DNA from: Octopus vulgaris
Lineage: Eukaryota
DNA length: 64,000 nucleotides
Assembly (NCBI GenBank): GCA_951406725.2
Contig: OX597815.1
Span: 65,720,001 to 65,784,000 of the forward strand
Direction: 5' to 3'
A program made the translations under genes and the position numbers. The notes under the pieces were generated by a model. It saw only the letters and a program-made list of their open reading frames with translations. It was not told the origin of the DNA and ran no database searches. Of the stretch, positions 14,535 through 61,594 are shown in pieces. Each line of letters begins with the position of its first letter. Position 1 is the first letter of the stretch.

Positions 14535-17365
14535 CTTTATTGCATCTTTGAATGTGAGAACTCTTCAGGACAGCAAGAAAAATATAGAACGTAGGACCGC
14601 TTTGGTTGCCTGTGTCTTGAAGGAAAAAACATCGGAATAGCAGCTCTTTCAGAAACCAGATTAGCGGACTGTGGCCAGCTACAAGAAATTGATGGTGAAT
14701 ACATCTTTTTCTGGATGGGTAAACCTCAAGAGGTAAAAAAAAAGGCAAGTGTTGGGTTTGCTATTCGGAATGACCTGGTGAAACAACTTGAATCTCTGCC
14801 TGTTAGCATTAGTGAAAGCCACATGTCATTGCGCATTGGCAAAAATAAACATGCACCTATTTTCAGCTGCTATGCTCCATCCATGAACTCAAATGAAGTA
14901 GTCAAAGAGCAGTTCTACTCTGAGCTACGTAGCCAGTTGAGAGGTGTCTCCATCCATGATAAACTTCTCCTCCTTGGTGATTTCAATGCACGTCTAGACT
15001 ATGATACATCTATATGGAGTAACGTAATCGGGAAGTATGGGGTTGGCAAGGCAAACTCAAACAACCATCTGATGCAATCGCTTTACAGAGAGACTTTTGA
15101 TTACCAGTACCATTTTCCAACTCCCCAAACACCACAAAACTACCTGGAAGCATCCCCAATGAAACCATTATCACCTCATAGATTACATAATTGTGAGGTT
15201 TTCCATGGGGGAAGATGTCTAAGTAACACGTTCTTTCTCCATTGGCGAGTGCTGATCTGACCATAGGCTGATACTATCAAAGGTGAATTTTACTATCCGC
15301 AGCCCTATTCGTAGCAATCGCACTCGACCAATTCAAAAAGTGGATGTAACAAAGCTGAGGAACAATGACAACCTCATTTCAAACAACCCGTGACAACATA
15401 CTTGCTCGTATCTCAGACAACACAGATATTGAATCAGCGTGGTCTACTTTTAAAAATCTTGTATTTGAGTCATCTTGTGAAACACTTGGGTGCGTTAAGA
15501 GGAAGTACCAAGATTAGTTTGATTTAAATGATCGTAACATCTACCCTCTTTTGGACAATATGCACAAGTGCCACTGTCAATGGATGTCAAATAGAAATAA
15601 TGCCACAAAATGCAATGAGTTTTAATAGGCCAGAAATACATCCCAATCTCAACTGAGGCAAATGAAACAGATATGGTGGCAAAGAAAGGCACAAGAATTG
15701 CAAGATGCTGCGGAGAGAAGTGACTCCAAGTCATTCTGCCAGAATTTAAATAGTGCATTTGGACCTGTGTCTGGTGGCTCAACTCCCTTACTTTCGACTT
15801 AGGGTAATCTTCAGACAAATAAAAAGGAAATCACGAAGCGCTGGGCAGAGCACTTTTCAAATGTTCTGAATATGAACTCAGTTGTTGATGAATAACTGAT
15901 CATCAACATACTACAAAGGCCTGTCCTTAAAGAACTGTCAGTCGCTTCATCAGATGCTGAAATAAAAAGGCCATAAAACAGCACGAATGGAAAGTCGTCT
16001 GGAGACGATAGCATACCAGTCGAGATGTATATAGTTGCAGTCTCCAGCTGAACAAGTTATGTGAACTTTTCTCCTTAATCTGGGAATCAAGATCAGTCCC
16101 ACAGGAGTTCAAAGACGCTTCTATTGTCCACCTTTATAAGCACAAAAAGGTTAACTTAAATAAAGTAAATGTTGCCTTTGCCAGCTTAGTGTTGCCTGAA
16201 TCTCAGTGTGCATTTCGGGCTGGTGGAGGCACAGTGAATATGATTTTTAGCCTTGTAGACCTAACTAAAGCTTTCGACACCGTATCTAGGGATGCTCTTT
16301 GGGTTGTTCGTAGAAAGTTAGGTGTTCCAGAAACGATGTTCAATGTCCTGATTTCTTTCCACCAAAGGATGATGGCTTCTGTCAGATGTAGCGGGGGAGT
16401 ATCCAATTCATTTACAGTCTCAAATGCGACAAAACAAGACTGTGTTCTTGCACTACTATTATTTGCTTTGTATTTCTCCGTCATGTTGGAAACAACGTTC
16501 GAGGATGATAAAGAAAACTGAGCTTGTCTATCAGGCCATTCGTGACCATCTTCTCGCTGTATATGTTGATGGAAAAGTATTAAAACTTGTTTCTTTCGTT
16601 ACTTATCTTGGTTCCATTTTACCCGATGATGCGAAAATGGATAAAGAATCGAGAAGGCTAGTCCTGCTTTCGGTAAGCTTTATCACAGGCTGTGGAACAG
16701 CCACGACGTATCGTTGAAGGTGAAATTTAATGTATATAAGTCGGTGGTCTTGACAACAGTGTTCTATGGTGCTGAATCTTGGACTTTGTACCGAAAGCAC
16801 ATCAATCAGCTTGACGCTTTTCATATGCCATGCTTGCGTACTATCTCCAACATAAAACCGAGTGACCATATTCATAACAGTGAGGTACTCACAAAATGCA
16901 ATATATCAGGTATTGAAGCCATTCTCATCAAAATACAGCTTAGCTGGTCAGGTCATCTATCACGTATGAGTGATATTAGAATTCCGAAGCAACTTCTCTT
17001 TGGCTAATTTCCAACAAAAAGGTCAGTTGCAAGGCCCCTCTTCCACTTTAAAGACAAACTAAAAGGCAATCTCGATGCATCATTTCCTTTTTTTCCTGCT
17101 TCTCCTCAGTTCAAAAATTTGAGCAAAATCGACTCCAACACCGGGACCAACTTCGTGCAAGCATGAAAGTATGCTGGTAAAACACTGCTCCTCTAAATGG
17201 AAACCTTACCTGTCATTGTAGTTTTGTGGCACGAAGCAAAGCAAGCCTAGTCGTCCACTCAAGAAAACACACAGTAAACTAAGTCCTCAACTTGTTCCAT
17301 TTGCCAAAAGGCTTGCAAGGTACCAGCAGGCTTTAAGAGACACGTTTGTGTCCATAGAACATGAT
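14535..17365 (+). pseudogene. RTE LINE ORF (APE endonuclease + reverse transcriptase), many stops, frameshifts and deletions
   Basis: NVRTL, VGFAI, CYAPS, LLGDFNAR (APE); LPESQCAFR, VDLTKAFDTV, KQDCVLA (RT); YGAESWT, WSGHLSRMSDIRIPKQLLFG; C-terminal CxxC...HxxxH. Confidence 0.92.
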
Positions 17366-18834: not shown

Positions 18835-19741
18835 ATACTATGCAAAACCTATGGCCTCAAAATACCTGATCCACCGGAACTCAGCCATTGCGGGCAATGC
18901 CAAATTCAATATTTTGATGGCAGACCTCGTCAGAATAATGAGAAATGTGTCACGCATGTGCGAGCCTACAGAATTAAAGAGACACATACAGTATTTCATT
19001 CACCGCATGCAGTTCTCAGGTTACAGCCATAAAGAAAGGATCAGAGTATACAAAGGAGCCATGAAGAAATTTGATAATATATTATGTAATGATAGGAATG
19101 GGATTTGCCCACTCTATAGGAACAAGTCATGGAACACTATAGAAAGGACAAAAAAGAAAATAAGGAAGGCCAACTCTTGGTATGATAGCCATAAATACCA
19201 GAGTGTCATGTTCGTTGACACCACCCCTGGAGGTGAACTAGCGTACCGCTTTAGAAGGACCGTAGATAAACTTAAACTAAGAATTAAGGTTGTTGAAAAG
19301 CCAGGCAACCCTATCAGATCTATAATTGGTAGAACCTATCCTTTTAGTAGAACTCTCTGTACGGATAACTATTGCACTGTATGTAGATTTAGCCCACAAA
19401 CGAACTGTAAAGCCAGAAATGTGGTCTATAGTATAAGATGTATAGAGGGACGATGCAGTAACAAGACAGTAACATACGTAGGGGAAACTGCAAGAAGCAT
19501 TGGTGAGCGGGTGAATGAACATTGGAGACAACTCAAGGAAGGTAAAAGCTCATCGATTCTGTACCAACACGTCGAACAAGAACACGGGGGATCAATCAAT
19601 AACATAGAGATTAAGATATTGTCCACACATAGAACAGATGCAACAATTAGACAAATTACAGAAGCTACACATATAATAGAAAATAAACCTAGCCTGAATA
19701 GAAAACTAGAATGGAGCAATAGCGCACACCACAACATATGA
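18835..19741 (+). CDS. 5'-truncated Penelope-like retroelement ORF (RT thumb, linker, GIY-YIG endonuclease)
   Basis: YAKPMAS...RMQFSGYS; CTVC...[12 protein letters not shown]...[16 protein letters not shown]...H...EH...RQITEATHI...LNRK; the ORF-track N-terminus is microsatellite. Confidence 0.88.
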
Positions 19742-20478: not shown

Positions 20479-21064
<586 letters not shown>

Positions 21065-29282: not shown

Positions 29283-29287
<5 letters not shown>

Positions 29288-29941
29288 ACAAGAAATGGAA
29301 CAAGAACGTAACAAGCGACGATAAAACATCCGGACAGTTAGACGATAGAAAAAGGACAGGAAAAAACAAGGATGACTTATTTGGAGCTTTCTATCTTCAG
29401 TCGAGTTCCAGATTATCTCAGCAGTTTCGGCCGGTTACATTCGAGACTGCTCCACTCTGGCCGGCCCCAAGAAAATCTAAGCTAAGAGCACTAGGTTCCC
29501 GGGAAGAAAGCAAGCAGATGTTTACGGACAAATGGTGCACAATTACAAATAAAAATAACAGGTATCTTTCGACTAAGGACGAATTAAATTAAGCTGGCGT
29601 GTGTGGAAGTGAAGCCTTACGGCAAGGGCATAGCTGATGAGAGTCATAGGAAGGAATATAAGAGATGGTACACGGATGGTAGTTGAACCAAGAAAGAAAG
29701 GTCAGGCTTGGTGGAACACCGGTCACGTGGAAGGAGAGGAGAGTGGTAGGGGCAAAGGGATAAAAGAATTAGGAAGGGACGAGAGAGAAAAAGAAAAGAA
29801 AAGGGACAGAATGAGGTAAACGAGGAGGGAAAGTGAGAATGAAGGGAAAGCCAAGAAATGTGAGAGAGGGAAAGCGATAAAAGGAAAAATGGAAAGAACG
29901 AAGTGTGAAGGGACTAAAAGAAAGAGTAAGAGAGTCGTACA

Positions 29942-29944
<3 letters not shown>
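29283..29944 (-). mobile_element. Non-autonomous PLE-type element inserted in (TA)n
   Basis: (TA)n on both sides; a truncated second copy at 30285-30414; contains hammerhead segments. Confidence 0.65.
29383..29466 (-). ncRNA. Candidate rearranged, pseudoknotted hammerhead
   Basis: GGCCGG CCAGA gt GGAGCAGT-C-TCGA atgtaa CCGGCC-GAAA-CTGCT gagataa TCTGG aac TCGA-CTGAAGA ta GAAA GCTCC. Confidence 0.6.
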
Positions 29945-29994
<50 letters not shown>

Positions 29995-30041
29995 TGCATA
30001 CATATATATATATACATAGGAGATAGGGGTACGTTACGCCG

Positions 30042-30150
30042 ATCCGGTTCCGACTGAAGATTAGAGTCTTCGAGTGACCCGTCTGTTTTTTTGTGTCGTC
30101 TCTTTGTGTGTTTTTGCGTTCTTGTCCCACTTTGTAATTTATATTTTATA
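30042..30150 (+). mobile_element. Truncated copy of the 37321-37606 family terminus
   Basis: GATCCGGTTCCGACTGAAGATTAGAGTCTTCGAGTGACCCGTC...GCGTTCTTGTCCC matches 37508-37600. Confidence 0.7.
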
Positions 30151-30164
30151 TTTTATATTTGATT

Positions 30165-30239
<75 letters not shown>

Positions 30240-30284
30240 TTACATATAAGAGACCAAAAGTGTACTACGTCGCTACATGTATAT

Positions 30285-30414
30285 ATAAAAAAGAAATCAA
30301 AAAATTAACAAGAACGTAAAAGCCGACAACAAAATATCCGGACAGTTAGACGATAGAAAAAGGACAGGAAAAAACAAGGACGGGTCATTCAGAGCTTTCT
30401 ATCCTCAGTCGAGG
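30285..30414 (-). mobile_element. Truncated copy of the 29283 family terminus (core CTGAGGA)
   Basis: CCGGACAGTTAGACGATAGAAAAAGGACAGG is shared with the copy near 29330-29360. Confidence 0.75.
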
Positions 30415-37320: not shown

Positions 37321-37606
37321 TTTTTGTCCTATTCTTACTATTATTGTTTTTTGTATTTATATTCGTGTGGCATCGTCCGTTTTTCTGTCCTTGTTTCGTA
37401 TACATTCGATCCTTTTTCCAAGAAATCTAATGCTCGTAGCTTAGTTTTTCCTTGGGGCTGGCCGGATCGGAGCGATCTCAAGATTAATCAGCCGAGGTTG
37501 CGAGGATGATCCGGATCTTGACTGAAGATTAGAAGCTTCGAATGACCCGTCCGTTTTGTGTGTCGTCTATTTGAGTGCTTTGCGTTCTTGTCTCATTTTG
37601 TATTTA
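37321..37606 (+). mobile_element. Non-autonomous PLE-type terminus ending in (TA)n
   Basis: Diverged homologue of the 29283 family. Confidence 0.65.
37456..37540 (+). ncRNA. Candidate rearranged hammerhead, covariant homologue of 29383-29466
   Basis: GGCTGG CCGGAT CGGAGCGAT-C-TCAAGAT taa TCAGCC-GAGG-TTGC gaggat GATCCGG ATCTTGA-CTGAAGA tta GAA GCTTCG. Confidence 0.55.
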
Positions 37607-37624
37607 TATATATATGCATACATG

Positions 37625-53183: not shown

Positions 53184-53299
53184 ATATATATATATATATA
53201 TAACGGGAAGCTTTATGAAAATAAACAAAAGACGAAGGCAGGTGGAGTACAAACAAACAATTGTATTAGTATGGCGCTCAGGAATATAAATAAAACAAG

Positions 53300-53337
53300 T
53301 CTTTTACGTTTCGAGCCTACGCTCTTCAACAGAAAGA
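53300..53337 (-). ncRNA. Minimal type I hammerhead-like motif with CUGUUGA core
   Basis: TCTTT CTGTTGA A GAGC-GTAG-GCTC GAAAC GTA AAAGA. Confidence 0.62.
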
Positions 53338-54104
53338 TACACAGAAAAGAAACACGGAGAGAAACAAGGAGAGAAAAAAATGCGTGCAGAAGCTAGCGAT
53401 TCAACATGGCGATTCTGGCCAGAAGTCAGAGATCAAACGTGAGACGCAAGAGCGAAAATAGGGGAGATAACAGGGTCAAATGACTTCGCCCCAACTTAAG
53501 GGTGCGTGTGTGTATGAGAGAGTGTATGTATGTATGATGTATGATGTGGTGTGTAATGTCCTATGGTGTAGTGTAGAGAGGGGAGATGAGGGGGAGAGTG
53601 AGAGTGGAGGAGGAGAGAGGAGGAGGTGAGGGGGGAGATGAGAGTGAGAGGGGAGGAGAGATGAGGGGAGGATGAGAGGGGAAGAGGGGAAGAGGGGGAG
53701 AAGGAAAGAAGGATGGGGTGAGGGGGAGATGAGATGAGGGGGAGGGGAGGGGAGATGAGATGGTGGAGGAAGAGAAGGGGGTGAAGGAAAGAGAAGAGGG
53801 GGAGGGGGGAGGGGGAGAAGGAAGGAGATGAGAGGAGGAGTGAGAGGAAGAGAAGGGGGAGAAGGAAAGAGGAGAAGAGGGGGAGGGGAAGGGGGAGAAG
53901 GAAGGAGAGGAGAGGAGAGGAGGAGGGAGAGGGGAAAGGAGGGGAGAGAGAAGGAGAGTGAGGGAGCAGAGAGAAAGAGGGAAGAAGAAAGAGGAAAGAA
54001 GAGGAGGGAAGAAGGGAAGAGGAGGGAAAGAGAGTAGCGGTGAAAAGATGAAGGACCGAAGAGAAGCAGGAGTCGGGGGTAGAGGTTAGATGAGGAGGGG
54101 GGAA

Positions 54105-54559
<455 letters not shown>

Positions 54560-54655
54560 ATAAAACGGTAAGATAACAAAAGAAAGAAAGAGACCTCAAT
54601 ATTATGTAAATAGAGGAAATTTATCTATACAATATGTTACATTACTCGGTAGTCA

Positions 54656-54718
54656 AGATAAAACTCTGAGTTTCAGATGCCGAAGTGGAAATCCACAACA
54701 CCATCTCTTCGGTTATCT
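54656..54718 (-). ncRNA. Type I hammerhead-like motif (C4 variant) in the pLTR
   Basis: AGATAA CCGAAGA GATG...CATC T GAAA CTC-A-GAG TT TTATCT. Confidence 0.65.
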
Positions 54719-54913
54719 GGCTATTTGAAAACGTTATGAAAAAATACCGTTAAAAATGAAGGGAAATTACTCTGTTATAACTCTGCTTTGCCTGCGTACT
54801 TATACATCGCTCGCATTTTTCGTCATAAAAATTATATAAAAATACATAAAAAATATATAAAAATATATAAAAATATATAAAATCTTCTTGGGACATAACA
54901 CAGAAAGCATGTT

Positions 54914-56538
54914 CTATCCGTTTTCTTTAGGGGACCAAAAACGTAACAGAAATTTAGTCACATGTGGGCATGATCCGAAAAGTTCTGTCCTTGTATTTAG
55001 ACATGTGGTAGGGTCTAAGCTGCTTTTCCAGATAAGCCATCTCTCCATGTCGCATAAACCGCACCTTCCGCTGCCGTTAGTATAGGGCTTACATCTGGCC
55101 AAAATCTTCCATTGTATGTTATAATCGACACCTTTATCTCTTAAAGACCAAATATGATTGGATAATTGTGTCGCTTTTCTTTTGTTCCAGTGCCTAAAGC
55201 TCAAAGTGTGGTTATTGAACCTGGCCTTGAAATTACCCTCTGTCAGGCCCACGTATTTCTTCGTCAAAACGGTGTCTTTAGTGGTTATAGAGTTTACGGT
55301 AGCCTCATATATGATGGTCTTGGACATGCAAGCTCCATTTAGCGGGCACAATTCTTTATTCCTGCATGAACAGCTGTTTTCTTCTTGTGTTTTTTGTATG
55401 TTATGATTGATTATGTTTTTAAAATTGGTAGTTGAACTAAAACTAATTTTTAAATTGTGTCTATTGAAGAGTTTCCTATAAGCATGGTTAACTGGAAAAT
55501 GTCTATCTATCAGTGCTAGGAAATATTTACCTATATTGAAGGCCACCTCGGGTGAGTAAGGGGGCGTAAACCAGATGACCTTCCTATTTCTATTATTCCT
55601 TTTCTTTATTGTTGGGCTGGTGATAGGTGTATATTTTATTTTTTCGCTAAAACCACTATCTTTTAAAGCTTTATTATAAACTGGGGCAACGCTATTGAAG
55701 ATGTCCTCATTAGATGAGAGGCTAGAAATCCTCTTACTAATATTTTTAACTAAATTTTTGAATACTATAGGGGGATGGCATGAACCTACATTAATATAAC
55801 TTAGTCTATCATTGGGCTTCCTATAAGGCTTATAAATATTATTATTAAGATCTAAGGAAACGTCTAAGAAATTGACAACCGTCAGGTTAGTGTCTATAGT
55901 TATACTAAGTCCGAAGTGTTTCATTAACTGGATAATATCCTTCCTAAAACGATCTTGTGCTGGTCCATTTGTATTAGCTGTTAAGGCGAGGGCATCATCT
56001 TTGTAGATGGCGAAATGTACGTTAGGGAATGTCTTACTGAAGGTATCTAGGAGAAAGAGTCCAATTAGATCACAGATGCCTGCCCCATCATATGAACCCA
56101 TGCTCACATCGAAAGCGCCCTCCGTGTCGGTGTTTTTTACCCACTTTGCATTCTCACTGAAAAGTAATGTCTTTCTAGCATGGAAGATTATATCCTTATC
56201 ATTGGTACTAATTTCTATGAAGTCACTAGCGAAGATTAGGGCTTTATCTAGCAGTTCTTTAGAGATAGAGGCATAAAAATCAACAATATCGAATTGTGTA
56301 AACCTCGCTTTTTTCTTATTCTTAATAGCTTTAAACCAGTCTACGACTTCTATACTATTGGACCATTGCACTAGCCTAGTATCGGTCTTAATTTTCGTAT
56401 TTATTTTATCTAAAATTTCTTTGCTAATAATCCCTAGTTCTGACTTGGCTGGGTTGATAAGCCTACATTTAGGATTGGAAAGGAAGTTTTCTTTGTGGTC
56501 TTTAATAGTAATAAAGGCCTCTTTTTGGGGGAGGGTTT
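54914..56538 (-). CDS. PLE reverse transcriptase + GIY-YIG-type endonuclease (N-terminally truncated, frame open)
   Basis: KDHK...CRLINP, QFDIVDFY, MGSYDG, IYKDDAL, NFLDV, YRKPN; CSCR..CPLNGAC..IIYEATV...YVGLTEGNFKARFNNH...CGLC. Confidence 0.93.
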
Positions 56539-57010
56539 CTGGAACAAAAGAAAAGCGACACAATTATCCAATCATATTTGGTCTTTAAGAGATAAAGGTG
56601 TCGATTATAACATACAATGGAAGATTTTGGCCAGATGTAAGCCCTATACTAACGGCAGCGGAAGGTGCGGTTTATGCGACATGGAGAGATGGCTTATCTG
56701 GAAAAGCAGCTTAGACCCTACCACATGTCTAAATACAAGGACAGAACTTTTCGGATCATGCCCACATGTGACTAAATTTCTGTTACGTTTTTGGTCCCCT
56801 AAAGAAAACGGATAGAACATGCTTTCTGTGTTATGTCCCAAGAAGATTTTATATATTTTTATATATTTTTATATATTTTTTATGTATTTTTATATAATTT
56901 TTATGACGAAAAATGCGAGCGATGTATAAGTACGCAGGCAAAGCAGAGTTATAACAGAGTAATTTCCCTTCATTTTTAACGGTATTTTTTCATAACGTTT
57001 TCAAATAGCC

Positions 57011-57073
57011 AGATAACCGAAGAGATGGTGTTGTGGATTTCCACTTCGGCATCTGAAACTCAGAGTTTTATCT
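57011..57073 (+). ncRNA. Type I hammerhead-like motif (C4 variant) in the inverted pLTR
   Basis: Mirror of 54656-54718. Confidence 0.65.
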
Positions 57074-57100
57074 TGACTACCGAGTAATGTAACATATTGT

Positions 57101-60302: not shown

Positions 60303-61594
60303 CGAGGGGCGTTCAATAAGTAATGCCCCTGACCCATTTCCCATAGCAGTAGAGCAACGAAACTTGGCACAGTTATTAGTCTTTTTCTACATAGGAACCA
60401 CCAAGAGTTACACATTTTTCCCATCGTTTCATGCAACTCTGGAGACCGTTTTTGTAGAACACCCCAGCTTGGTCCTCCAACCACAACGTGACTTCAGAAA
60501 TCAAGGCTGCATCATCTGGGAAACACTTTCCTTTCAAAAACAACTTCATGGCTGGGAAGAGGTGAAAATCAGAGGATGCAAGGTCAGGAGAGTAGGGGGA
60601 GGGGGGAGGAGTTCATAGCCGCACGCCTGTGCTTCTGATCTGGCGACACGCGAGTTGTAGACCGGAGAGTTGTCCTGCAGGAGGAGGATGCCTTTGCTGA
60701 TCTTGCCCCGCCTTTTGATTTTGACAGCTTCTCTTAATTTCCTCAAAAGTGAAGCATAATAGGCTCCTGCAATTGTGGTACCCTTTGCCAGGAAATCTGT
60801 CATCACTACTCCGTCCTGGTCCCAGAAGACTGTGAGCATGACCTTGCCAGCGGAGGGCTGCACCCTTGCCTTCTTTGGAGGAGGTGAGTCACGGTGCTTC
60901 CACTGCATTGATTGGGCTTTGGTCTCTGGATCATAGTGATGGACCCAGGTTTCATCCTGTGTAATCAGTCTTTTGAAAAATTTTGACTCATCTTCTTGGC
61001 ACATCTCCAAATTCATCCTCGAGCACTCGACGCGTTCTTGCTTCTGGAAAGGTGTGAGCAACCTGGGAATCCATCTGGCAGACACCTTTTGCATATGCAA
61101 ATGGTCATGAATGATAGTTTCCACAGACCCGGTACTAAACTTGACCTCATGGGCTATTTGGCGAATAGTTATGCGTCGATCTTCCAAAATGACAGCCTCA
61201 ACTTGACGAACAGATGCCTCATCAATGGCAGAAGGGGGGCGACCAGATCTGGGAGCTGTTTCCACAGAGTTCCGACCATGTTTGAATTCACGATGCCAGC
61301 GTTTTACAAGGTCATATGATGGGGCATCATCACCATTAGTTACTTTCATTTCATCAAAAGTCTCCCGTGGTGTGCGTCCTTTCAAATACAAAAACCGGAT
61401 CACTGCTCGACACTCAACAGGCTCCATTTCACACTTGACTCAGTTCAAACACCTGTATATCAGAGACCACAATTAGTTCAGAGCTGTAATTTGCCACTTA
61501 ATCTATAGAGATATAAATAATTGCACATGTAAATTTTCAGCTAGATCAAACAACTGCAAGTGGGTCAGAGGCATTACTTATTGAACGCCCCTCG
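60303..61594 (-). mobile_element. Full-length mariner transposon (1292 bp)
   Basis: 34-bp TIRs with one mismatch; TA target duplication within a (TA)n tract. Confidence 0.96.
60376..61427 (-). pseudogene. Mariner transposase (DD34D type) with one frameshift near 60600
   Basis: WIPRLL, TQDETWVHHY, KVMLTVFWD, LQDNSP; after the G-run the other frame gives YSPDLAPSDFHLFP...KRWEKCVTLGGSYVEKD*. Confidence 0.93.

Follow-up and report, generated by a model that had tools for sequence, protein, structure and literature searches.

Hammerhead ribozymes of type SGC carry a clamp helix and a linker of about 3 nt, and their cleavage has been shown experimentally (Eckert et al. 2023, PMC10085705). Hammerheads of Penelope elements and retrozymes are proposed, in the accessible parts of two reports (PMC4209133; 10.64898/2026.07.22.740005), to trim transcripts and give rise to circles. 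Naiads are described in the available text of Craig et al. 2021 (PMC8557442) as lacking a canonical hammerhead, eight of them being labelled half-core with no proposed fold; other hammerhead permutations are mentioned by citation only in the available portion of PMC13725137.

The locus described here lies within a window of 64,000 nt (the whole stretch of Octopus vulgaris DNA analysed, on contig OX597815.1), which consists of AT-rich, microsatellite-rich animal DNA from a 2.8 Gb assembly. Its minus strand encodes an RNA whose blocks follow the type SGC order (site, GAAA, CUGANGA), but in which the 5′ strand of helix II precedes all of them instead of following CUGANGA. Read 5′ to 3′, the RNA consists of the 5′ strands of helix II, the clamp and helix III, the NUH site and the 5′ strand of helix I; after a linker of 3-4 nt come the 3′ strand of helix II, the GAAA box, the 3′ strands of helix III, the clamp and helix I, and finally CUGANGA. 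The 5′ strand of helix II is thereby displaced about 60 nt upstream, and the bases 3′ of the core pair in a closing helix, P0. All the sequence words on which a previous sequence-only reading had built its hammerhead are found at their minus-strand positions (Table 1), as is the GUC site, with the cut predicted, in agreement with that reading, between 29445 and 29444; its proposal that A9 is not covalently joined to helix II, a non-standard hammerhead architecture, is likewise supported. Comparison among copies lends good support to this structure, a split hammerhead in a non-circular permutation, which is very probably correct.

Table 1. Candidate ribozyme, its parts and its neighbouring copies in the window
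Feature	Positions	Strand	Remark
Whole RNA fold (hammerhead blocks and flanking scaffold)	29378-29520	minus	
Closing helix P0, 5′ strand	29505-29520	minus	
Hairpin P-up	29467-29504	minus	ends immediately before G10.1
Helix II 5′ strand GGCCGG	29461-29466	minus	starts with G10.1, upstream of entire core; 3/6 pairs with double changes
Clamp helix 5′ strand ("I" interaction of type SGC)	29454-29460	minus	one mismatch in window copy; 4/7 pairs with double changes
Site block (helix III 5′ strand, GUC, helix I 5′ strand)	29439-29450	minus	
Helix III 5′ strand	29446-29450	minus	
C17 of GUC site	29445	minus	predicted cut 29445/29444
Helix I 5′ strand	29439-29444	minus	
Short linker, helix II 3′ strand (C11.1), GAAA box, helix III 3′ strand	29421-29438	minus	
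Helix II 3′ strand	29429-29434	minus	
GAAA box	29425-29428	minus	
Clamp helix 3′ strand	29408-29414	minus	covariation
Helix I 3′ strand and CUGANGA box	29394-29406	minus	
Helix I 3′ strand	29401-29406	minus	
CUGAAGA	29394-29400	minus	
Closing helix P0, 3′ strand	29378-29392	minus	includes the "second GAAA" of the sequence-only reading; distal half decayed in window copy
ORF-less repeat unit body (pyrimidine-rich part, ribozyme fold, 3′ end on (TA)n)	29285-29945	minus	unit start reaches about 30039
Inverted 3′ fragment of subfamily B	30040-30165	plus	abuts unit start; read from sequence
Second copy, 5′-truncated	30231-30413	minus	what remains is the helix I 3′ strand with CUGAGGA, the 3′ end and the tail
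Third copy, subfamily B	37380-37615	plus	compensatory changes in all four helices

The window copy diverges by 12-15% from its relatives, carries one mismatch each in the clamp and helix I, has a broken distal P0 and may be dead; the third copy is likely inactive, because its GAAA box reads GAGG. A second copy had been placed at 30391, and CUGAGGA is indeed present there, but the piece starts at 30413 and contains neither the site nor the GAAA block. The circular block order, nested helices and Rfam match of classical types I, II and III are all absent: a scan of the window returned 129 Rfam matches to E=1, all of them microsatellite-driven and of miRNA or snoRNA type; none is a hammerhead and none lies at the locus.

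Comparison among copies reveals four covarying helices, a conserved NUH site, GAAA box, CUGANGA box and G10.1-C11.1 pair, and a conserved flanking scaffold. The pattern CCGAAA..GACTGANGA..GAAA, which represents the GAAA and CUGANGA blocks and also requires a downstream GAAA, matches the genome 2820 times, against 9 for the reversed control; loci drawn from this list represent, besides more distant families, at least five subfamilies (A-E) that are related to one another, and 29 indel copies were added as extra loci. At least 17 of 19 pairs of the descriptor are formed in 98 of 153 motif instances (a set that includes truncated copies and chance matches) and in none of 765 controls with the upstream part shuffled. 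Covariation, whose absence the sequence-only reading had named as a ground for refuting its fold, was assessed in 31 copies of equal spacing, taken from 57 such copies among the 98 and preselected for good fit, so that the percentage paired is inflated: 93.1% of cells are paired, against 13-43% for slid partners in the same alignment, and 14 of 24 pairs are double-changed, which none of 500 shuffles equals. Helices I to III as well as the clamp all covary, helix I (6 bp in most copies) and the clamp (7 bp) being longer than originally recognized. Because the copies share ancestry, the double changes within subfamilies A-E come down to about six to ten events, of which two are located at CpG sites.

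The core bases are retained as a hammerhead would need them. A U-A pair (A15.1-U16.1) is present in all 31 aligned copies; by variant count, CUGA-GA is kept by 27/30 members of subfamily A (26 with exact CUGANGA) and 30/30 of subfamily B, the N7 position, described as free in the sequence-only reading, taking all four bases across copies; and the first GAAA box is intact in 24/30 and 26/30, respectively. The site is GUC in 26/30 copies of subfamily A (GUC or GUU in 27/30) and AUC in 29/30 of subfamily B (AUC or AUU in 30/30). Of 86 distinct variants, 80 begin helix II with a G-C pair, the C11.1 side of which was partly forced by the search seed. In subfamily D, each clamp strand is one base shorter. 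The descriptor also caught families that are unrelated and differ entirely in their helix sequences (L114, L128, L100, L050, L156 and L170-184). Across families, helix II reads for example GGCCG, GGCUG, GGGCA, GCACC, GACAC, GAGCA or GAAGG, and the site is GUC, AUC, GUA or AUA. Such retention of one geometry across families that differ in their helix sequences argues for the fold more strongly than the covariation in the 31 copies.

The bases 3′ of CUGANGA pair with the stretch upstream of helix II to form P0, and the P-up hairpin ends right before G10.1. The mean folding energy of this scaffold over the 98 instances is -21.9 kcal/mol, versus -15.6 for shuffles, with 43/98 below the 5th percentile; among 27 copies, 85.5% of its cells are paired, with 13 double-change cells (0/500 shuffles) and, counted by pair, 7/25 double-changed (19/500 shuffles). 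The scaffold is common to the unrelated L050, L156 and L100 and weak for P0 in family F (see below), and the alignments back it less strongly than they do the core. The family at L050 and L156 displays the same split fold together with the scaffold, and a possible decayed instance of it lies in the window at about 20726-20770 on the plus strand.

Taken together, these comparisons suggest that the hammerhead-type fold at the 3′ end of this short non-coding Penelope-like repeat probably cuts itself after GUC (29445/29444). P-up, which ends at G10.1, and P0, which starts 0-2 nt after A9, would stack into a single long stem, with the ribozyme inserted in its 3′ strand, an arrangement that could keep A9 beside G10.1 without a covalent link; the usual hammerhead core would then form and cut after C17. 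It is usual for Penelope-element hammerheads to have one more base between positions 9 and 10.1, according to the available text of PMC4209133, which makes a backbone break at this junction plausible. As in other Penelope-like elements, the role of cutting, whether slow or protein-assisted, would be to reduce tandem or read-through RNAs to single units, perhaps as circles.

The 5′ ends of integrated copies bear on this proposal. No spike is seen at the predicted cut among 87 copies of subfamilies A-E and 75 of family F, and 62/87 and 62/75, respectively, reach at least 50 nt upstream of GAAA, i.e. across the site, so that most integrated copies would derive from RNA uncut at that position. In subfamilies A-E, 16/87 ends fall within 15 nt upstream of GAAA, 3′ of the cut, compared with 8 over the following 30 nt (naive p 0.0009), an excess that the AT-rich linker, inversions, deletions or reverse transcriptase (RT) stalling at the knot would explain equally well; the values for family F, 6/11 and p 0.048, are subject to the same confounders. 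That most integrated copies span the site would suit a fold that is real and selected but does not cut itself, acting as a hammerhead-derived RT binding or initiation signal or cutting in a protein-dependent manner at a negligible rate. This reading, which is also compatible with the unjoined A9 and with a Poseidon hammerhead that, in the accessible part of PMC11167929, needed protein, was dispensable for in vitro insertion and gave no reads ending at the cut, appears unlikely: the catalytic bases and the NUH site (GUC, AUC, GUA) are conserved while the helices are replaced across families and phyla, and in vitro cleavage is documented for type SGC RNAs, which have these four helices too (PMC10085705).

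The sequence-only reading had further proposed a switch, in which two GAAA strands compete and a type III core devoid of helix II, formed by GGAGC/GCUCC pairing, acts as a second active fold. The two words can pair in the window copy, with 80.6% of cells paired over 31 copies, and hammerheads without helix II cut slowly (available portion of PMC13725137); against this, none of the five pairs is double-changed and 500/500 shuffles are at least as good. In sets of 30 copies per subfamily, selected on similarity alone, 15/30 have GAAA as the second tetramer and 12/30 have GGAA; subfamily B lacks this second GAAA and reads UUAGAG in 24/30. Moreover, the second fold would require a 2-nt bulge beside the A15.1-U16.1 pair, and the purine stretch that contains the tetramer is instead the 3′ strand of the long-range helix P0, whose upstream partner CUUUC lay outside the coordinates originally considered; neither the second fold nor the switch stands, and both are very improbable.

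It is hardly credible either that the complementarity is a coincidence within a repeat undergoing decay and that changes at CpG sites imitate compensation: two of the double-change pairs are at CpG sites, and nested folding of the window copy, a model that leaves pseudoknots out, is no better than that of shuffles (z -0.31), but transversion swaps (U-A to A-U in helix I), the paired indel of the clamp and the unrelated families with different helix sequences already contradict it. An HDV-like double pseudoknot, a type of ribozyme that features P3/L3 and P1.1, is the least tenable alternative, for although the GGCCGG start, two long-range helices that fit P1 (helix II) and P2 (clamp) and a GCUAA before the clamp in subfamily A are compatible with it, the proposed P3 is 66.7% paired with 1/5 pairs double-changed and 244/500 shuffles as good, helices I and III and CUGANGA are left unexplained, and the Rfam scan gives no HDV-like match. 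Separately, a dimer-type minimal hammerhead on the AGCU palindrome was dropped, because the other subfamilies do not preserve AGCU and it is not followed by a partner for helix I.

The split hammerhead resides in a high-copy repeat. Segment 29285-29520 has 3237 first-look candidates in the genome, the best 40 of which are 85-88% identical, and subfamily B, that of the third copy, is younger (3690 candidates, 95-97% identity). Units of subfamilies A-E are ORF-less, about 0.8 kb long and present in thousands of copies; tandem periods of 776-853 nt occur in seven loci, other copy spacings (180-1331 nt) being ascribed to broken copies, and the tail of one unit runs into the next, with inverted fragments also occurring. 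At L133 and L135, units of 829-853 nt form retrozyme-like head-to-tail arrays. With TATATA at most 35 nt from the 3′ end in 27/30 and 23/30 loci and copies free of ORFs, the original suggestion of TA-targeting elements is supported, and truncated, tandem and inverted copies, a tail and microsatellite targets are together features of a Penelope-like derivative. A hairpin with a GAAA tetraloop and a CACGUGAC word, conserved in subfamilies A and B, are located 5′ of the ribozyme fold (29562-29573 and 29719-29729, minus strand).

No coding parent emerged for subfamilies A-E: an ORF scan revealed none, no Naiad or other Penelope ORF is joined to them in 139 loci, and when L001-L139 were queried by tblastn, six proteins of Penelope type and C-terminal pieces of Naiads hit unrelated neighbours only. 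Thirty GIY-YIG loci encode C-terminal endonucleases, none of which is followed by the motif on the same strand. The link of the window's own family to Naiads is therefore one of shared architecture, and this family may be a non-autonomous passenger of Naiad enzymes.

Other mobile elements populate the window. A Penelope-like element at 54600-57100 (minus strand) consists of RT followed by a short endonuclease, with a 549-codon open stretch and inverted flanking ends on (TA)n; from its motifs, we take it to be Hydra-like. A Penelope-like element of the C-terminal GIY-YIG kind is represented at 53200-54420 (minus strand) by its 3′ piece, which has a pyrimidine-rich tail and, near 53320, an ordinary minimal type I hammerhead-like word. 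Three remnants are, presumably and by their motifs, another Penelope-type ORF (about 18850-19740, plus strand), a LINE endonuclease (14595-15260, plus strand) and a mariner-type transposase (about 60550-61440, minus strand).

In the octopus genome, the fold is tied to Naiad ORFs for family F, whose motif is that of Naiad_Obim and Naiad_Ovul and has 256 genome matches versus 0 in the control. Unrelated in sequence to A-E, family F adopts the same fold, with a GUA site in 60/75 copies, and lies about 1.0-1.4 kb behind the Naiad RT on the same strand in 11/30 RT loci; it is also found behind the Naiad N-terminal endonuclease in L207, L209 and L214. The combination that marks the Naiad clade, an N-terminal GIY-YIG and an RT ORF in the same element, is thus present for family F, and no ORF was found for A-E.

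Inspection by eye of the last 350-450 nt of 53 of 54 Naiad consensus sequences (supplement of PMC8557442) extends the fold to other animals: it is clear at 9/53 3′ ends (Naiad_Amil, _Aacu, _Anas, -2_Movir, -3_Chem, _Plae, _EuTe, _Obim and _Ovul) and weaker in Naiad_Esco and _Bfor, with nothing of the kind within the 350-450 nt of the remaining ends, apart from the plain SGC and CSG orders described below. Because the three coral sequences are near-identical within this portion, as are the two octopus ones, the nine Naiads amount to about six lineages. These we take to be coral, box jelly, hydrozoan, acanthocephalan, clam shrimp and octopus, several of the species names being our expansion of abbreviations. 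The 3′ end of Naiad-1_Movir and of the mussel and clam Naiads is presumably twister-like, as a candidate resemblance. These ends and those of oyster and hemichordate Naiads, which share another conserved 3′ motif without CUGANGA, belong to the same part of PMC8557442 File S5. There, also by eye, the spider Naiads Naiad_Sdum and _Smim have the plain SGC order with long inserts, Naiad_Sdum with a U3/A8 core variant, and helix II of the spider Naiad_Ptep is a closed hairpin. In the same portion of File S5, six nematode Naiads (Naiad-1/2/3_Nbra, _Hcon, _Hpol and _Asuum) are by eye of type CSG (CUGANGA, then site, then GAAA) with full helices, a type previously known from two sequences only, both metagenomic.

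On the evidence of these sequences, the octopus fold may well represent a seventh natural hammerhead topology, whose core works with a backbone break between A9 and G10.1 on a stacked two-helix scaffold, and may be the missing ribozyme of many Naiads across animal phyla; the Naiad 3′ slot would then be occupied by a split-SGC, plain SGC, CSG or twister motif, and non-circular permutations would be abundant in animal genomes and not metatranscriptome rarities. If so, hammerhead topologies would number more than the six block orders regarded as possible, and the core would not need the A9-G10.1 link, a directly testable structural claim that would be useful in ribozyme design. It would also overturn the view that Naiads, among the most abundant invertebrate Penelope-like elements, spread without a hammerhead, and undercut the argument that hammerheads merely ride on Penelope-like elements; standard descriptors and Rfam would miss thousands of ribozyme copies per genome (2820 pattern matches here). 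Neither the split form nor permuted hammerheads in Naiads are described in the open literature searched, in which PMC10085705 was covered by its main text; further eukaryotic or split variants may be listed in its supplements.

Compared with known systems, the reading of Naiad 3′ ends presented here starts from the same words that carry the labels "HHR_core" and "HHR_half_core" in the available part of PMC8557442, where Naiad_Ovul and Naiad_Esco are half-core and the second half lies 35-50 nt away, on either side; no fold is given in that part by Craig et al., and the helices and predicted cut site are what is added. With the Penelope-like pseudo-LTR hammerheads (Cervera and de la Pena 2014, PMC4209133) and non-LTR retrozymes (10.64898/2026.07.22.740005), as far as their accessible text goes, the octopus fold shares a position near the 3′ end of a Penelope-like repeat, as well as truncated, inverted and tandem copies and ORF-less tandem units. 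Those hammerheads, however, are a type I circular permutation whose helix III, short and palindromic, is believed to require dimers; in the octopus fold, helix III has 5 bp and lies within a single copy, helices cross and no palindrome is needed. Closest are HRIMA-1 and its type SGC variants (PMC10085705), with which it has in common the block order, all core bases, the short linker between helices I and II and a fourth helix joining the far sides of these two helices. In type SGC, the helix II strand stands directly 3′ of CUGANGA (with at most 1-2 inserted bases), as a block assumed to be uninterruptible; in the octopus fold it is found at the 5′ end, P0 and P-up being located where the break occurs, and since this block rule is broken the fold is filed as hammerhead-type and not as SGC proper. 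Finally, type SGC ribozymes come from metatranscriptomes and, by the account of Eckert et al., not from genomes of known organisms, whereas the octopus fold is carried by thousands of copies in an animal genome.
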